Of a stretch of DNA of 64,000 nt, positions 55,701 through 64,000 are shown piece by piece (within the stretch, counting starts at the first letter, position 1; each line of letters begins with the position of its first letter). The position numbers and the translations under genes were made by a program. Below the pieces are notes generated by a model. It had not been told where the DNA came from. It did no database searches and saw only the letters and a program-made list of their open reading frames with translations. The stretch comes from an uncultured archaeon (GTDB taxonomy: Archaea; Asgardarchaeota; Thorarchaeia; Thorarchaeales; Thorarchaeaceae): contig CAZSWP010000006.1 of NCBI GenBank assembly GCA_964610875.1, positions 1-64,000 on the forward strand. The letters are read 5' to 3'.

Positions 55701-56228
55701 TTATGGATCGGTTGATTCTGCTGGAGGGCCAGCTGCAGGAGCCCTGCTACCTAGTTTGGAGTCCAACATGAAGAGTGCGTTGACTGAATCTCCAATCTTC
55801 TTTAACATATCACGGATTTCCATTGTGGTGGCTTCTTCTTCCACTTGTTCGTCATAGAACCAGTTCAAGAATGACATTGTTCCCCTGTCACCATGTTTCT
55901 CAGCCAATTCACCAATCTTGTAGATTCTCTCGGTGACATGTGCCTCATGATTGTATGCTTCCTCAAAGACATCTAGTGGTGATGACCACTCTGTCTTTGG
56001 TGCATCAATCGCCTTCAACTCAACACGAGCTCCGCGTTCAGTGAGGTGACGATAGAACCTCATTGCGTGATTGAATTCTTCTTGATATTGGAATTCCATC
56101 CAACGAGCGAACCCTGGTAAGTTCTCTTCTTCAAACCATGTCGCCATTGACAAGTAGATATATCCACTATAAATCTCGAAGTTTATTTGGTCGTTAATTG
56201 CGTCTATTAGTTCTTGATTGATCTCCAT
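55701..56228 (-). CDS. ftnA: Ferritin (non-heme)
   Basis: QINFE..S..IYLSM, EEFNHA, HE..VT..I, FL.WF..EQVEEE ferroxidase residues. Confidence 0.95.
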   Translation of the reverse strand: MEINQELIDAINDQINFEIYSGYIYLSMATWFEEENLPGFARWMEFQYQEEFNHAMRFYRHLTERGARVELKAIDAPKTEWSSPLDVFEEAYNHEAHVTERIYKIGELAEKHGDRGTMSFLNWFYDEQVEEEATTMEIRDMLKKIGDSVNALFMLDSKLGSRAPAAGPPAESTDP

Positions 56229-56403: not shown

Positions 56404-59061
56404 ATGGCTGATTTAACGCTCATGACAATATTAGTACAGTTTATTCCGTCAATTATTGTGATACTGGGATACCTCATTCTCTTTGGCAAGAGAAGGAATC
56501 GCTTTATTGAAGCCTTCATTTTGGTAATGGTTGTCCAAGCCGTCACCTTTTTCATCTACAACATTTTTGTAATTCCTTCGATAGTACCGAACTACTTCAG
56601 TGAAACAGTAGATACTGACGTGTTTATTGGTGTTCTATTTACTGATTTCATGTTCCAGTTTGGATATGCACTTCAAGGATTCTTCACATGGATAATGGTT
56701 TCATTCATAGCTGTTCTTTTTGGACAACTTGTCCTTTTGTTGAAACTTGCTTTGCAAGATCCACTGAAAATGAAATTCTCAAATCTGACCAAGAGAATTG
56801 TTGGGAAGGAACCTGAATCTGATGGTTACAGTGGTCTGGGAGATCGACTTCAAAACATCCGCTTTGAAGGTGTAGAACCTCATCCACTTGATCCTGAGGT
56901 TGTTAAGAAAGCATATAGTGAATCTTGGAAGGATTACCTTATCATTGGATTGGCAACACTACTTCCATCAATTGGTATCTATATGGGTAATTATGCTAAC
57001 TTGTACATATATGCAGTAGTCGTATTTGTTACATGGATTTACCGTTTTGGTTATCCTGCATCAAATCGTATTGCTAAAGGTGCTGGAATTACTCTTGGAG
57101 ATCGTGATCTTGGTAGTGAGATGATGCGTGGAGTTCTCGGATGGTTCTTCCGTCTTAACCTACTACTATCTCTTGTAACAATCGTATTTGATGTTATCAA
57201 TGCCATAGGAACAGGTACTCTCGCATCTTTGGGTGCCTACTACTTGGAAGGATTAGCACTTGCGTTTCCGCCAATTCTTCTGGTTATCATAGTATTTCCA
57301 ATAGCTGAGGACTTTTCAGTAATTTTATACAAGAGAGTCTTTGATGCAATTGCATCTGCTCGTTCAAAAATATCATTAACAGACTGGTCTGCAGTTTTAA
57401 CAAATGCGGTATCCGGAGTGTTAGTTGGTGGCATTGCATTAGCTGCTTTTCTAGGAGCAGTATTTGGAGCCACAGTTCATTATGCAAGGATGCACGGGCT
57501 TGGATTTCTATTTTATCCCAGTGAGATTGATGCTTTTGTGACAGGTGCCATAGTTTCTGCACCTACAAACTTTGAAATCATATCTCCGGTCATTTGGGAA
57601 TTATTGATGTTGATGATTCCGTTTGGAATGATGATACTACTAGGACTTCTAGGACATCTCATTCTAGATAGGACTAACGCTCGTCCACTTGGATTTGCTT
57701 TCTTCTCAGGTCTATTCCTTTCAGTTGTATCTTACTTCCTAATGCCTGGATTGGATTACACACTTGGTGGAAGGATTATTCCAGCAGAATACATGGGAAA
57801 TGTCTTCTACCGTATAGTACCACTTGTGATAGCTCCAACTGAACTCGACCTTTTGTTCCGATTGGCTGCTGAATTCATCATAAATGTGCCACTCAATATC
57901 TCAGTCGTCCTCTTCATACTCTATTACCTTAGATATAGAGATAGATGGCGAGAATCAACAGGTGAAGAGAAAGGACCACTGCTGAGTGTTCAATTCCGTG
58001 ATATCAAAGATGCAGTATTGCTCTTTGTTGGTGGTATCATCGCATCAATAGCTGGAATCCTGATCATTTCAGTAGTGCTGGATCCAGGATATCTATTCTC
58101 TTTGATATCTTCACTAATAATTGAGATTGGTGAGCCTAATGGACTTGAGTTGGTCTTCGCATATCAGGTGTCAATCTTTACAATCGTAGTTGAGCATAAT
58201 ATTATACGCACCTTATTGATGTTGATAGCTGGACCGCTGTTCTGGACGGTAGTTTTGTGGATGGTTGGTGTGAGGTCAAAAGAAGAAGCTAATGGAAATG
58301 TCGGTTGGTTCACGTTATTTCTCATTGTTGTAACAGGCATTGCGTCATATCTATGGACAATCAATGATATTGCCGCTGGTTTGATTGTGCCATCAACAAA
58401 TCCTTGGGCTGACCCATGGACTTTTTCAGCACATCTCGGGTACCGTGCAGCTATTCTCTATGGAATTTTATTTGGTGTGTACTTTTTGGCTATAATTGTT
58501 AACTATGTTAGCAAAGGTAGTGTGGGAGTATGGTGGTTACCACCAATTGCCACACTATTTGCCATCGAGTACTTTGTATATGATGACCAATTCACACTAA
58601 TTGCGCTAATCATTTTGCCAATGATTCTGGCTCTTGTATACTATCCTTTCAAAAAACCAGAAGAACAAGGTGATTTGCTTATCACATACATCAGATTCAG
58701 TCTGTTGTCTCTAGCGATAGCTGAAATCCTTTCAACAGCTCTCTGGGTTGCTGGAATTGCTACACTTGAATTCCTCTTTACTGGAAATATTATTCCATAT
58801 CTTGCACAGATTCTCCCTCATGCAATAATAGAAATACCTGCATTTCTGTTTGCTGCAGCCGCATCCTTCAGGATTGCAAGAGACCTCGAACCTACCATAA
58901 TTGCAGAAGATTGGAGTGAGGTGCCAAACAAAACGAAAGAGATTCTAACAGACTCACGAATGTGGCGAACATATTTACTGGTGATGTTCTTCCTAGTGAT
59001 AGCAGCACTTATTGAAGAAAACATTTCCTGGATAATATTCCAATATGTAACGCAACCATAG
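56404..59061 (+). CDS. Very large polytopic membrane protein with C-terminal SpoIIM/DUF95 domain
   Basis: Roughly 20 hydrophobic segments; ILPHAIIEIPA and IAALIEE at the C-terminus. Confidence 0.8.
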   Translation: MADLTLMTILVQFIPSIIVILGYLILFGKRRNRFIEAFILVMVVQAVTFFIYNIFVIPSIVPNYFSETVDTDVFIGVLFTDFMFQFGYALQGFFTWIMVSFIAVLFGQLVLLLKLALQDPLKMKFSNLTKRIVGKEPESDGYSGLGDRLQNIRFEGVEPHPLDPEVVKKAYSESWKDYLIIGLATLLPSIGIYMGNYANLYIYAVVVFVTWIYRFGYPASNRIAKGAGITLGDRDLGSEMMRGVLGWFFRLNLLLSLVTIVFDVINAIGTGTLASLGAYYLEGLALAFPPILLVIIVFPIAEDFSVILYKRVFDAIASARSKISLTDWSAVLTNAVSGVLVGGIALAAFLGAVFGATVHYARMHGLGFLFYPSEIDAFVTGAIVSAPTNFEIISPVIWELLMLMIPFGMMILLGLLGHLILDRTNARPLGFAFFSGLFLSVVSYFLMPGLDYTLGGRIIPAEYMGNVFYRIVPLVIAPTELDLLFRLAAEFIINVPLNISVVLFILYYLRYRDRWRESTGEEKGPLLSVQFRDIKDAVLLFVGGIIASIAGILIISVVLDPGYLFSLISSLIIEIGEPNGLELVFAYQVSIFTIVVEHNIIRTLLMLIAGPLFWTVVLWMVGVRSKEEANGNVGWFTLFLIVVTGIASYLWTINDIAAGLIVPSTNPWADPWTFSAHLGYRAAILYGILFGVYFLAIIVNYVSKGSVGVWWLPPIATLFAIEYFVYDDQFTLIALIILPMILALVYYPFKKPEEQGDLLITYIRFSLLSLAIAEILSTALWVAGIATLEFLFTGNIIPYLAQILPHAIIEIPAFLFAAAASFRIARDLEPTIIAEDWSEVPNKTKEILTDSRMWRTYLLVMFFLVIAALIEENISWIIFQYVTQP

Positions 59062-59148: not shown

Positions 59149-62100
59149 TTATTCTTCTGTTATTTTATCTTCATGATGATTTTCTTTTATCGTTGCGCCC
59201 TCTTCTGACAACAGTTTTGATTTTTCAGTGTCAATTTCATCATGAGTACTTACTCTCATTGCCGAAAATTTCCTCACAATTCGTGAAGACGCGAATGGTA
59301 TCAGTACAAGAAAAACAACAGGTATCAGAACAATTGCGGCCATTGAGTAGTTCTTGAGAAACTCAAGTTGCATGATTGTAGTAGCTCCAAGGATGAGTAA
59401 GAACATTAAGAACTTGATTCGAATTGAAGAACCAGTTCTACCTATCAAGAGTGCCTGCTCCTCATCAACAACATGTTTCGGCGTACCAGCTGCTATCATA
59501 TCATCGATTCTTCCCAATCCTTTCCTAATCTCTCGATAGAAGCTGACTACAACCACCACTATACTAGTGAAATATGTGGCTAGAACGGTAGCAAGTATTG
59601 GCGGGAAGCTTAGTTCACCAACGACTACGTGTGGGATCTCAATGATCCATCGTTGAAACATCTCATGAAAACCACCATAGAAGAATATGATGTAAACAAT
59701 GAATGGTACTAATATAAGATGCCACACACCAAGTACAATCCTTCGTTTACTTAACTGACCTTGGAGAAGGATTGAAGAGTAAGCATCTCGATAAAGCCAA
59801 AGCCCATAGAGAAGAACAGAGCATCCAAGCAGAATGATGCCCTCGATTAACGCAAATCCTATCTCTCCTACTGTAAATAACCACCAAGAGTGGAGGAACA
59901 ACAACCCCGTGCTAGCAACTATTACAGCATAGATTCTATCCAATTGAGTGATACTACTAGTGACTTCCTCTGTCTTTCTAGATGAAGTTGTGACAACGGA
60001 TGACACTTTGACAAAAAGTATCATTCCAATTATACTCAAGAGGAGTGCGAAACTGGCAGCTAGTGATAGTTGACTAACAGATAGTGCTTCCATTCCTGGT
60101 ACGAATACTTCCACAAATACCACTTCACTACTATACCTTGGTACAGAAAGCATCCCATCTATACTGACCAAGAGGTTATAGTACCCATGGTGAGTGTTTC
60201 CTACTTGAAATGTGACAGAATAAGTTCCTCTGACTGAGGTTTCTTCTGCTTTCTTATTCATATATACGAATTCGATCATTACCAACAGGTCTGTCACAGG
60301 ATTTTCATATAGGTCAGTAACTTCAACAATGACAACCAAGTCTGAATATTGCTCTGGCACAACAGGTGAGGTTCTGATAATGATAACCGGGTCTGCTATT
60401 ACTGCAAGATTACCATCTTGTTTTGTTTCATGTAGAAATTCGTGATTGATTGTGATGTAGTAAGGATGAAATCCATATGGCCAACCAATAGTAGAGATAT
60501 TCGTACGATACAGGCTACCGGTAATATATTCAAGTGTATAGGTTGACCCTCGTATCAATACAGAAACAGATGCAGCCATAATATCTGTACTCAACCAATC
60601 TTTTACATGGACCTCCAAAGTAGTTTCATTCCCCTGCCCTACACTCCATTCCTCCGATGGAATTACAGCTAGTATTGGTGCTGACATAACCTTAATGTCA
60701 CAAACCATTTTTCCTGAATAGCTGTAATCGGACCCATAATAGACTATGAAGTTCCATTCACCTACGCAATAGGTTGCATTTAGTACGGCCGTATATCTTC
60801 CAATAGTTGATTGACTTGCGGTTATATTCTTACCATCGATTTCTAGAATGATCCAAGTGTCAGCTGGGGCTGAGCCATAATTATCACTTATGTATACAGT
60901 TACTGCGAACTCCTCCCCACCACCAACAGGGGGTAATTCTGGGACTTCAGAAAGAAGATTCCCCTTGGTCACGATTTGAACTTCTCCAAAGTCAAATCCT
61001 CGGATAAATTCATGTTCTACTGATATATCGAATGTATGGTTACCTATCTTGAAATTCGCGATAGTATCCAGCAAGTAGCATCCAGGGGATGACTCAGTCA
61101 GTGTGAGCTCGTAAATTCCACTGACCATCATAACCTGCGCGTTCTCAATCGGATTTCCAAATATGTCCGTGATGTTCAACCAACCATAGAACTGCTCATC
61201 TTGTTCAGTCAATGAAGGGATGTTTCTATCGAAACGGAGCTCATCTGTTTCAACTCTCAATTCTGTCGATTCAGAGGCTACAACGGAAGCGAAATCATGA
61301 ATCACAGTTGAGTTCACCAAGTATTCTCCGGGAATTAAGTCTATATTCGGAACCAATAGTCTATACTGCGTATTCACATATGTAGTAGCAAAATTGACAC
61401 CATTCATTGACACATTCACAATAGCATCTGGAACTCTGGTACCAAGGCTATCGGTGACTGTTACATTTACAGAGAGAGTACTATTCTGAAGAACAACATC
61501 TCTTGTATAGACTTCTACATCCAAGGGACTTCTAATAGTTAGTGCATTGTGATAATATTCTTCCCATGTGTCGTATAGGATGTGATTGACCTGTAGACTT
61601 AGATTGACAACTCCAATTGGCCAATTAACCGCGACCAGTGTTGAATAATTGTTCGCTTCGAAAATGAGGGCCTTGGTTTGGTTGATAATGGAGGTTCCTG
61701 AGAGATAATGTACTGTAAGATAGACCTTAGCATCACTAATGATTTCTGAGTAGATATTTGTAACATCAACATCAATCTCAAGTGAATCTCCCTGCAAAAG
61801 ATTCTCAGATGGCAAAGTCAAAGATGCATTCAGTCGACGAATCAGGTTGATATCACGAATGACTCCTATCTTTGTTATATCATTTTGAATAAGAGGATAG
61901 ACTACAATTTCCTCTCCATATCCAAGATCGACGTTGCCTAATTTTAGCGACCCATATCCTTTTCCTATTATCATTGTTCGTTCAATAGCCCCATCCAACG
62001 AGAATATTCTAAGAGTTTCATCTTCTTTAGTGAAAACAGCGAATTCATCTTCACTATCGCCATCGAAATCAACAATTACTGAGCTTAGGAACTCGGAATC

Positions 62101-64000
62101 ACTGATAGTGACCTCCCATTCAACAATAATCGGATTTGCAAGTGTGATACGAATAAGATTTCCTGTGAAATAATCGGGACTAATTATGTCATCTGTTCCA
62201 TCAGAATCAAAATCTTTGATTGTAGGCTGTACGAAAAATCTCCCAGGACAATAGAATAGTGTAGTTTCGTTAATTCTAGAAGTAGTTGCATCAAAAACAT
62301 GAAATCCACTTGAAACATTGTTGGGGGGATTCATGAAGTAAAAATAAAGTAAGAAATTCCGCGTCGATTCTGATTCATTACTGAAAGGATATACCGCCAC
62401 TGGAACAGTGAAGGCATACTCTGGTAAGGTTACACTATGAGTCGAAATAAGGGTCATTGATGTAACATTAATGATATCTATAGGTCCAGAGCTTGCGGAA
62501 ACACACGCTTCAGTTGACCTGCTATTCACTGTGTGCCCTAAACTCAACGAATAGAATTCTGCATTCTGCCCAGTCACATTTAAGCTTGACCAAGAGCCAT
62601 CTGCACTTAGTTTCAACATCTTTGCATAATTCTCAAATCGATGTTTGGATACGTACAAGAATTCGTCTATCCCATCATTATCACAGTCGAAGATTTGGAA
62701 AGACTCAGGTTTTGAGAAGTTTTCATAGGGACATTGTGATGAAAACCAAAAACTACCAGTAGAACCATGATACATTGAAACATTGGTCGTCAATGTAGTA
62801 GCATTATACAATACAATGATAGGATCAAGAATACTGTCTCCATCCATCATTCCTGTATAGATCCAGAAATCACTGAACGTACGATTTGCAACCAACCCCA
62901 AACACTGTTTTTCACCTCTAGCTGCGTATCTTTCCAACCAGATTTCATGTGGTGTTGAATCAAGTGTATAGATTACTTCACTTCCATCAGAAGCATTGCC
63001 AATGTCCATCAAATGGTGTTCGAACTGTGAATCTTGATTCTTTGAGTCTGACCAAATGAGATGTCCTGCAATCGTAAAGTTCAACGGATGTGTTTCGTTT
63101 CCTAAAGAACCAACATTCAGATAGGTGTCTTGAAAAACAAGATAATAGTCGTAGTATCCTTCTGACAACCCTACCAAGAATGCAAAATATTGTGTCCCTG
63201 CATTCTGAAGCTCATCAGTTGGTTGTACCCAATACTCACCTTCATGACGAAGATATATATCTGCTAGGATTATCGTTGTATTATCTTCCACTCCGACCTC
63301 GATTTCTATGAAGGGATCATGTATTGTCGGATGTGGTGGAGATAGAGGTTCTGGGCTGAGGACTGGAGCCTGAATATCACTAAGAATTATGTAAATGGTC
63401 TGGGATTGTACGACAATAATGTCATCTCTACCATTACCATTGACATCAAAAGTGCAGAGCTGTTCTAATTTGCTTGAAATTGTAGGTTCGTAGAAACCAA
63501 CTTCACCATCAACTCCTCTAAGGAAACCCGGGTTGTTACCGACAGCTGTCATCAGGGCAAAGTCAGTGAGATTGTCTGCATCTAAGAAGCCTGAATCACA
63601 CAGAAGTGTTGATGGGTCTGAGCCCATAGAACCTGCTGGAGAACCATAAACAACTTCTGATTGGCGGATAATGGAACCATTGGACCCATCTATAAAAACA
63701 GTATAATTGTCCATTTCAGGTATTACGAAAAGATCCTCCTGATTATCATGATTAAGGATTCCAGTTAGTACTTGGCTTCTTTCTGGAAGTCCTGTTGTAT
63801 TGAAAATAGCATTCATTGTATCTGGTAAAATAGTAGTGAGGTTCCCATCGAACATTAGTACAGCTAAGTCGTCCAATCCTGTTCCATAATCAAAAGTAGC
63901 TAGACCATATATCTCAGTGTGCATCATCTTGGTTCTCATTAGCGTTCCATTGCCTGCAACGATACTCAAATTTCCATCTTTTACGTTATTATAGATTCCC
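59149..64000 (-). CDS. Giant surface protein (5' end outside window): FG-GAP/VCBS repeats + Ig-like repeats + 7-TM C-terminal domain
   Basis: Frame is open to the window edge. DxDxDGxxD motifs, six VxVxDxxGxxIxxAxV-type repeats, seven C-terminal hydrophobic helices. Confidence 0.85.
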   Translation of the reverse strand, partial: GIYNNVKDGNLSIVAGNGTLMRTKMMHTEIYGLATFDYGTGLDDLAVLMFDGNLTTILPDTMNAIFNTTGLPERSQVLTGILNHDNQEDLFVIPEMDNYTVFIDGSNGSIIRQSEVVYGSPAGSMGSDPSTLLCDSGFLDADNLTDFALMTAVGNNPGFLRGVDGEVGFYEPTISSKLEQLCTFDVNGNGRDDIIVVQSQTIYIILSDIQAPVLSPEPLSPPHPTIHDPFIEIEVGVEDNTTIILADIYLRHEGEYWVQPTDELQNAGTQYFAFLVGLSEGYYDYYLVFQDTYLNVGSLGNETHPLNFTIAGHLIWSDSKNQDSQFEHHLMDIGNASDGSEVIYTLDSTPHEIWLERYAARGEKQCLGLVANRTFSDFWIYTGMMDGDSILDPIIVLYNATTLTTNVSMYHGSTGSFWFSSQCPYENFSKPESFQIFDCDNDGIDEFLYVSKHRFENYAKMLKLSADGSWSSLNVTGQNAEFYSLSLGHTVNSRSTEACVSASSGPIDIINVTSMTLISTHSVTLPEYAFTVPVAVYPFSNESESTRNFLLYFYFMNPPNNVSSGFHVFDATTSRINETTLFYCPGRFFVQPTIKDFDSDGTDDIISPDYFTGNLIRITLANPIIVEWEVTISDSEFLSSVIVDFDGDSEDEFAVFTKEDETLRIFSLDGAIERTMIIGKGYGSLKLGNVDLGYGEEIVVYPLIQNDITKIGVIRDINLIRRLNASLTLPSENLLQGDSLEIDVDVTNIYSEIISDAKVYLTVHYLSGTSIINQTKALIFEANNYSTLVAVNWPIGVVNLSLQVNHILYDTWEEYYHNALTIRSPLDVEVYTRDVVLQNSTLSVNVTVTDSLGTRVPDAIVNVSMNGVNFATTYVNTQYRLLVPNIDLIPGEYLVNSTVIHDFASVVASESTELRVETDELRFDRNIPSLTEQDEQFYGWLNITDIFGNPIENAQVMMVSGIYELTLTESSPGCYLLDTIANFKIGNHTFDISVEHEFIRGFDFGEVQIVTKGNLLSEVPELPPVGGGEEFAVTVYISDNYGSAPADTWIILEIDGKNITASQSTIGRYTAVLNATYCVGEWNFIVYYGSDYSYSGKMVCDIKVMSAPILAVIPSEEWSVGQGNETTLEVHVKDWLSTDIMAASVSVLIRGSTYTLEYITGSLYRTNISTIGWPYGFHPYYITINHEFLHETKQDGNLAVIADPVIIIRTSPVVPEQYSDLVVIVEVTDLYENPVTDLLVMIEFVYMNKKAEETSVRGTYSVTFQVGNTHHGYYNLLVSIDGMLSVPRYSSEVVFVEVFVPGMEALSVSQLSLAASFALLLSIIGMILFVKVSSVVTTSSRKTEEVTSSITQLDRIYAVIVASTGLLFLHSWWLFTVGEIGFALIEGIILLGCSVLLYGLWLYRDAYSSILLQGQLSKRRIVLGVWHLILVPFIVYIIFFYGGFHEMFQRWIIEIPHVVVGELSFPPILATVLATYFTSIVVVVVSFYREIRKGLGRIDDMIAAGTPKHVVDEEQALLIGRTGSSIRIKFLMFLLILGATTIMQLEFLKNYSMAAIVLIPVVFLVLIPFASSRIVRKFSAMRVSTHDEIDTEKSKLLSEEGATIKENHHEDKITEE

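Follow-up and report, generated by a model that had tools for sequence, protein, structure and literature searches.

In adhesion G-protein-coupled receptors (GPCRs; class B2, e.g. latrophilins and GPR56) a very large ectodomain built from repeats lies directly before seven transmembrane (TM) helices that are oriented N-out/C-in and carry a long helical inside segment between TM5 and TM6. Integrin alpha chains and prokaryotic FG-GAP/immunoglobulin-like (Ig-like) surface proteins combine a seven-blade FG-GAP propeller with calcium-type loops and a stalk of Ig-like beta-sandwiches, Polycystin-1 (PKD1) joins an ectodomain of Ig-like repeats to a polytopic membrane domain in one chain, and in the bacterial 7TMR-DISM receptors an extracellular binding domain precedes seven TM helices. 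According to two papers that cite Liu et al. 2021, integrin repeats were reportedly noted in Asgard archaea in that work; the text of its preprint makes no mention of integrin. The Asgard archaea in culture have no S-layer and rely on contact with partner cells, and their surface proteins are for the most part uncharacterised. Here we analyse a stretch of 64,000 nucleotides (the window, i.e. the whole stretch of DNA under study) from the uncultured Thorarchaeaceae archaeon GCA_964610875.1, which corresponds to positions 1-64000 of contig CAZSWP010000006.1 (C6:1-64000) in a genome of 124 contigs and 3.75 Mb that is 95% complete. At its right-hand end lies a gene for a protein of 1847 residues (P0003) in which an ectodomain of propellers and Ig-like repeats stands on a seven-helix membrane module. 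This module is better conserved than any other part of the protein and, judged from sequence and from a predicted model, belongs to an Asgard-specific family of its own.

The complete open reading frame (ORF) spans C6:59149-64692 on the minus strand with an ATG at 64692, so that its 5' part lies past the window edge; the longest possible start is a TTG five codons upstream of this ATG, and the encoded protein is 100% identical to the product listed for the contig in the public collection. Recovery of the full gene had been proposed as a check in the preliminary description, which was made from the window sequence and which had correctly taken the source for an Asgard archaeon. The 231 residues beyond the window edge comprise a putative signal peptide and further propeller blades: at the N-terminus a basic n-region precedes a hydrophobic core of 19 residues (hydropathy peak 2.32), which we read as a predicted signal peptide. 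The order of domains is signal peptide, FG-GAP propeller, beta-sandwich, second FG-GAP propeller, six Ig-like repeats, seven TM helices and an acidic tail of 43 residues (Table 1).

Seven hydrophobic segments are present in the membrane module and seven long helices in its AlphaFold2 (AF2) model, in agreement with the number of helices counted in the preliminary description, and the span of 59285-60070 given there is refined to 59281-60078. Because a model from the single sequence was too poor (predicted local distance difference test score, pLDDT, 53.9), the module was refolded with an alignment, A2, of 88 module sequences that includes relatives at 16-25% identity; the query is itself one row of A2, and its relatedness rests on the homology searches instead. 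With A2, the last 328 residues gave a pLDDT of 86.6 and a predicted TM-score (pTM) of 0.79, with seven helices of 25-48 residues; the outer loop between TM4 and TM5 holds a further, short helix and a beta-hairpin. Lysine and arginine contribute charges of approximately +4, +4, +8 and +4 to the loops after TM1, TM3, TM5 and TM7, whereas the remaining three loops have 0, 1 and 1, and the sole N-x-S/T sequon of the module is found in the TM6-TM7 loop, which is predicted to face outwards. This distribution of basic residues and the placement of the sequon fit a predicted N-out/C-in topology, as had been proposed from basic clusters after the same four helices. The long inside loop between TM5 and TM6, also singled out earlier as helical, forms a helical hairpin in the model with a conserved turn at T1737 and P1738 and with E1745, R1758 and K1760 conserved. 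Since the helices exceed the thickness of a bilayer, TM1/2, TM5/6 and TM7 would project into the cytoplasm; from helix lengths and sequence position we infer that they may form a helical crown there. On the outer side the last Ig-like repeat ends at a conserved proline approximately 7 residues ahead of TM1. A prediction of the module as a homodimer, i.e. with two copies, scored 0.07 against a mark of 0.42, which counts neither for nor against a dimer. The endings of TM3 and TM5 (Y-R-D and Y-R-E) had given rise to the idea of an internal duplication, which was rejected given that hhalign of the sub-alignments yielded a probability of at most 18%.

Conservation peaks in the module. Mean identity to 23 full-length orthologues is 51% in the module, 36-39% in the propellers and stalk, 27% in the signal peptide and 17.5% in the tail; the second most conserved region is the beta-sandwich between the propellers (49.5%). 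Within the module, column entropy is lowest in TM3-TM7. Residues conserved in at least 90% of the sequences in A2 are P13 (just before TM1), Y69, D117, G154, F160, P178, Y200, E226, K241, F245, L246 and P272, and R239 is conserved in 89%; P13, Y69, D117, Y200, E226, K241, F245 and P272 are all present in the query. In this numbering D117, Y200, E226 and K241 correspond to D1636, Y1719, E1745 and K1760 of P0003. By sequence position, Y69, D117, Y200, E226, R239 and K241 would lie at the cytoplasmic interface and G154, F160 and P178 at the outer loop. A conserved polar cluster (S106, Y110, H139, S191 and N198) is situated in TM3-TM5, in their cytoplasmic half, and D/E258, which is acidic and close to the outer end of TM6, is conserved in 65%. 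S106 is conserved in 77% of the sequences and is not kept in the most distant relatives; H139 is conserved in 88% and replaced in about one sequence in eight.

Searches for a known family or fold returned no relative of the module. In Pfam, the query (hmmscan at E up to 1 and up to 0.1) and all 88 module sequences (E up to 0.1, with 25 families listed) gave sub-threshold noise only. NicO (E 0.01; 15.6 bits against a cut-off of 27.7), DUF2178 (9 of the 88 members), HlyIII/PAQR and DUF2207_C (two members each), the last three all far below cut-off, were rejected as the family of the module and set aside as hydrophobic noise; PAQR proteins have a topology opposite to that of the module. An NCBIfam search of the module returned nothing and a sequence search against PDB nothing relevant. 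With the predicted model as the query, the best Foldseek match in PDB had an E-value of 0.11, none fell below 0.1, and TM-scores did not exceed 0.29. An exhaustive VIA-align search placed a designed four-helix bundle on top, superposed on TM3-TM6 over 152 residues (Z 10.5, root-mean-square deviation (rmsd) 3.4 Å), followed by four-helix bundles of sensors and TM domains of pentameric channels (Z 8-10); all of the module matches are inside the range, Z up to approximately 13, that is named as common for helical bundles. In the ESM-Atlas the fold search gave TM-scores by query of at most 0.36 and the feature search no usable match. The literature on Asgard FG-GAP, integrin, seven-transmembrane and surface proteins yielded no description of the module family. 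Together, the sequence searches and those with the predicted model show the module to be, at the level of its predicted fold, an undescribed, Asgard-specific family without known relative. Of the four observations that the preliminary description had named as refuting its proposal, none was made: the module has seven helices and a high-confidence model (pTM 0.79), it matches no transporter or enzyme fold, and it is conserved together with its cytoplasmic loops.

The family is modular. Of 1.84 billion representative proteins, only 71 were picked up by an exhaustive phmmer search, and word-indexed searches brought up close relatives; all matches with a named source are from Asgard archaea (Thorarchaeota, Sifarchaeia and Lokiarchaeota/Promethearchaeota); the relatives are annotated as hypothetical proteins or as membrane proteins of unknown function. 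Among GTDB genomes, 73 of the 301 in the phylum and 50 of the 76 in the same family have a match to the module, nearly always at the end of open frames of 1500-2500 residues in the genomes of the phylum. There are usually one or two copies of the family protein per genome, and in the source genome the module is single-copy (profile E 5.9e-109 over positions 3-297 of 303). The ectodomain attached to the module varies: (i) Thorarchaeota forms of ~1850 residues have an FG-GAP/Ig ectodomain, (ii) a form of ~2500 residues has FG-GAP, invasin-D3 and Big_1 domains, (iii) a form of ~1640 residues has invasin-D3 and Big_1 domains, and (iv) Lokiarchaeal proteins of ~1500 residues combine an external BNR (sialidase-like) domain with a double zinc ribbon that follows TM7 in the cytoplasm. 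Thus, the module is combined with varied ectodomains across Asgard genomes, as a search outlined in the preliminary description had anticipated. Stand-alone short forms of the module were considered and rejected; the 30 short matches are, where this can be judged, fragments on short contigs or records marked partial. In many Thorarchaeota genomes a second paralogue of ~2500 residues with the same module and a longer stalk is found (L018:1114-8634, minus strand), with stalk matches to Invasin_D3, Big_1, Big_7, Wzt_C-like and Filamin-like domains; the source genome has only the form of 1847 residues. Three loci have a single in-frame TAG or TGA in or near the module (G021:C5:73039-73896, G021:C27:540-1406 and G100:C191:1494-2372), and these family members may be pseudogenes or reflect sequencing errors.

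The ectodomain has the integrin-alpha-like layout of FG-GAP propellers and Ig-like stalk that had been proposed from the window. Every FG-GAP motif quoted earlier is found in the minus-strand frame 59149-63999 (residues 311, 368 and 415, and 614, 668, 827, 875 and 919 of P0003), and further calcium-loop motifs are located beyond the window edge at residues 126, 174 and 267. In Pfam, FG-GAP scores 26.1 bits (cut-off 22.1) and FG-GAP_3 scores 42.5 bits (cut-off 26.9). The motifs of propeller 1, including those beyond the window, are spaced by 44-57 residues with one double gap of 93 residues, and this spacing suggests that propeller 1 is complete with seven blades; the middle blades of propeller 2 are degenerate. 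Overall, the spacing of the motifs implies two predicted propellers of 7 + 7 blades. The six Ig-like motifs recur with a period of 94-102 residues and can be aligned with one another, in agreement with the number of repeats reported before. Their Pfam signals are weak (Big_1 28.5 bits against a cut-off of 34.9, Invasin_D3 marginal and CarboxypepD_reg weak), and both Big_1 and Invasin_D3 appear in the precomputed Pfam lists of homologues. Across the ~1490 residues of the ectodomain there are 39 N-x-S/T sequons, 2.5 times the 15.6 expected from composition, and 201 aspartate and glutamate compared with 64 lysine and arginine residues. This excess of sequons and the strong acidity fit a glycosylated archaeal surface domain, and the protein is a giant and probably heavily glycosylated cell-surface protein.

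Table 1. Features of the seven-helix gene in the window, with the corresponding residues of P0003 and the basis of each assignment.
Feature	Position	Strand	Residues, basis and remarks
Seven-helix membrane module	59281..60096	-	1533-1804; hydropathy, AF2 model, conservation, profile match
TM1	60010-60078	-	hydropathy
TM2	59869-59937	-	hydropathy
TM3	59791-59862	-	hydropathy
TM4	59674-59745	-	hydropathy
TM5	59536-59604	-	hydropathy
TM6	59356-59415	-	hydropathy
TM7	59281-59343	-	hydropathy
Predicted cytoplasmic helical hairpin TM5-TM6	59416..59535	-	1720-1759; AF2 helices 179-215 and 220-256 of the module
Acidic cytoplasmic tail	59152..59280	-	1805-1847; poorly conserved, 17.5% mean identity; pLDDT ~50
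FG-GAP propeller 1	63343..64000	-	~100-450; blades 1-3 outside the window, up to ~64395; motifs at 126, 174, 267, 311, 368 and 415; Pfam above cut-off
Predicted beta-sandwich spacer	63013..63342	-	~451-560, ~110 residues between the propellers; no Pfam match; domain type suggested by sequence
FG-GAP propeller 2	61858..63012	-	~561-945; motifs at 614, 668, 827, 875 and 919; FG-GAP_3 matches below cut-off
Six tandem Ig-like repeats (Big_1/invasin-D3 type)	60097..61857	-	~946-1532; period and mutual alignment, weak Pfam signals
In-window part of the gene	59149..64000	-	232-1847, with stop codon 59149-59151

Set beside the systems described above, the Asgard protein resembles each of them in part. 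With the adhesion GPCRs it has in common the repeat-built ectodomain of very large size, the seven helices with the same predicted orientation and the helical TM5-TM6 segment; unlike them it has no detected kinship in sequence or fold, no GAIN/GPS autoproteolysis domain (the protein has no Pfam match to GAIN or GPS) and no known link to G-proteins, and its helices would form a cytoplasmic crown. It shares the propeller, the calcium-type loops and the beta-sandwich stalk with integrin alpha and the prokaryotic FG-GAP/Ig proteins, the blade count being predicted from sequence. Unlike integrin alpha, it has two propellers, a stalk of the Big_1/invasin-D3 type instead of thigh and calf domains (there is no Integrin_alpha2 (thigh/calf) Pfam match in the protein) and seven TM helices instead of one TM helix and a GFFKR tail (no GFFKR motif occurs in the translation). 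Integrin_beta (PF00362) was not found in the 95% complete source genome, and control genomes were equally silent. The likeness to Polycystin-1 is one of layout only; the Asgard protein has no PKD-channel or GPS match and 7 helices compared with 11. Unlike the bacterial 7TMR-DISM receptors, the Thorarchaeota form lacks an enzymatic output module in the cytoplasm and has an ectodomain that is approximately ten times larger, and neither the query nor the 88 module sequences have a 7TMR-DISM_7TM match in Pfam. Microbial rhodopsins differ from the module in having a retinal-binding lysine in TM7: TM7 of the query is without lysine, and A2 has no conserved lysine column in TM7 before the cytoplasmic end.

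Combining the architecture with the conservation data, we suggest, giving this about an even chance, that the protein is a surface binding protein of the adhesion type whose base is more than a passive anchor. In this model, (i) the propellers would bind an external ligand, which may be another cell, a glycan or a component of a matrix, (ii) the stalk of Ig-like repeats would be rigid and would join TM1 via the almost invariant proline with hardly any linker, (iii) the seven-helix base would be set apart from an anchor by its crown (TM1/2, TM5/6 and TM7) with near-invariant Y, D, E, R and K residues, and (iv) the crown could be a docking or switching surface for a hypothetical cytoplasmic partner. 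The protein would then work like an adhesion receptor by convergence and not by descent from GPCRs. Several observations weigh against this model. Ligand binding by the propellers would follow by analogy with what FG-GAP and Ig-like domains are known to do, and contacts among the conserved residues are placed by sequence position. Constraints on helix packing could be enough to explain why a polytopic domain is so highly conserved, and the conserved serine, threonine, histidine and asparagine residues in the membrane would suit a conduit or the site of an enzyme equally well. In the Thorarchaeota form no output domain can be recognised; it has only the poorly conserved tail of 43 residues. Neighbours differ between module loci, and there is no conserved partner gene around them. 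A flanking block of a bitopic protein of ~510 residues, a response regulator and a Pyr_redox enzyme is common to six close genomes only, and in the source genome homologues of this block are not near the gene but on contigs C19 and C20; a conserved operon partner, considered as a candidate, can therefore not be claimed. Genes for GTPases or arrestin-like proteins, for which the preliminary description had suggested looking, are not consistently adjacent, and the flanking genes are not kept beyond close relatives.

The missing output domain, the short and unconserved tail and the lack of a conserved operon partner are all as would be expected if the module were a passive polytopic anchor. According to this explanation the protein would be a coat or adhesin component of an envelope without an S-layer, and the helices would only hold a very large, load-bearing ectodomain in a wall-less single membrane, without signalling or a partner. 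As would be expected of a structural protein, the architecture is collinear throughout and conserved to a moderate degree, and many surface proteins protrude from the Asgard envelope (PMC9834061). However, anchors are normally the least conserved part of surface proteins and here the module is the most conserved, its invariant charged and aromatic residues are at the cytoplasmic face and the outer loop and not only in positions facing lipid, and the Lokiarchaeal relatives have added a cytoplasmic double zinc ribbon; we consider a purely passive anchor somewhat unlikely. Alternatively, the module could be a channel, a transporter or an intramembrane enzyme, the ectodomain capturing or sensing a substrate and the bundle conducting ions or solutes or catalysing a reaction in the membrane. 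Helix faces that are conserved and rich in serine and threonine would suit such a function, as would the membrane-embedded H139 (88%), N198 and D/E258 (65%), and the matches to the TM3-TM6 bundle include TM domains of pentameric ligand-gated channels (Z 8.4-8.7). However, these matches do not exceed what is common for helical bundles, and designed ones score higher; neither sequence nor fold points to a family of transporters or enzymes, no catalytic motif is recognised, and neither S106, which is lost in the most distant relatives, nor H139, with its replacements, is kept throughout. We regard a conducting or catalytic module as quite improbable.

The adhesion-GPCR likeness drawn in the preliminary description stands for the layout of seven helices with N-out/C-in orientation and does not extend to a relationship with GPCRs, for which no Pfam match, no GAIN/GPS domain and no convincing superposition were found; the caution expressed there, that homology to GPCRs had not been shown, was right. 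The contact-sensing receptor or gated channel that was also suggested there is a hypothetical function of the protein. A highly diverged true homologue of GPCRs, adhesion GPCRs or microbial rhodopsins, and thus an Asgard precursor of the eukaryotic 7TM receptors, would also have its longest inside loop between TM5 and TM6, a conserved Y-R-D at the end of TM3 and a conserved basic residue at the opening of TM6, as the module does, and GPCR chains are present among the weak Foldseek matches. However, these matches to the predicted model have E-values of at least 0.16, TM-scores of 0.16-0.25 and rmsd of 17-25 Å; in VIA-align, GPCRs (Z 6.6-7.7, rmsd 10-16 Å) and bacteriorhodopsin (Z 6.9, rmsd 10.8 Å) all score below the generic bundles; and no GPCR family (7tm_1, 7tm_2, 7tm_3, Frizzled and others) or rhodopsin family is listed in the hmmscan of the query or among the 25 families for the 88 members. 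Because the searches by sequence and with the predicted model gave no convincing match and both GAIN/GPS and the TM7 lysine are absent, the module has the topology of a GPCR without detectable kinship to GPCRs or rhodopsins, and common descent is highly improbable. Returning to a binding protein with an active base, the model can be taken further: the module could represent a class of transmembrane receptor that is new, specific to Asgard archaea and convergent with adhesion GPCRs. Such a receptor would relay binding or mechanical load on the glycosylated ectodomain to the crown, and the crown would pass it on to the cytoskeleton or the membrane-remodelling machinery of the Asgard cell. In this extended form we consider the proposal unlikely.

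The genes around the module loci are of interest in their own right. The protein of ~510 residues in the flanking block is encoded downstream of the orthologue and convergent with it (L023:5292-6938, plus strand, with counterparts at L022, L024, L025, L027 and L031); it has one hydrophobic segment at the N-terminus and another, C-terminal one, as well as a zinc-ribbon-like motif CPNC...CKKC and a long acidic tail. Its homologue in the source genome is at C20:9759-11117, and the counterpart at L016, with an adjoining response-regulator gene, has no Pfam family on record. In the window, the gene convergent with the seven-helix gene (56404-59061, plus strand; stop codons ~90 nt apart) encodes a separate polytopic membrane protein of 885 residues with a C-terminal SpoIIM domain (PF01944, E 1.9e-11), and a ferritin-like protein of 175 residues (PF00210, E 3.4e-40) is encoded at 55701-56228 on the minus strand. 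Beyond the window, a divergent ORF of 2305 residues with matches to CBM_56 and DUF7743 (C6:65547-72464, plus strand; identical to L002:10548-17465) is separated by ~850 nt of intergenic DNA from the start codon of the seven-helix gene, and the ORF after it (L002:17707-18999, plus strand) has a weaker, sub-threshold match to CBM_56. The source DNA is present in two sequencing runs from one microbial-mat study; no RNA run is listed among the sequencing runs that contain it.

In the cultured Asgard archaeon Ca. L. ossiferum, complex surface proteins protrude from a single membrane and there is no ordered S-layer (PMC9834061). By analogy, a single-membrane surface of this kind would be the setting in which the module protein acts. 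By sequence and predicted fold, the membrane base forms an undescribed family confined to Asgard lineages, and it is more strongly constrained than the ectodomain. Were it no more than an anchor, it would still be useful as a marker and a candidate for a part of the Asgard envelope; whichever function applies, the data lend no support to an archaeal origin of GPCRs. If the base couples binding on the outside to a partner on the inside, the adhesion-receptor principle would have been invented independently in the lineage leading to eukaryotes, and a convergent receptor of this type, if true, would provide a molecular handle on the cell-cell contacts that are invoked in models of eukaryogenesis.

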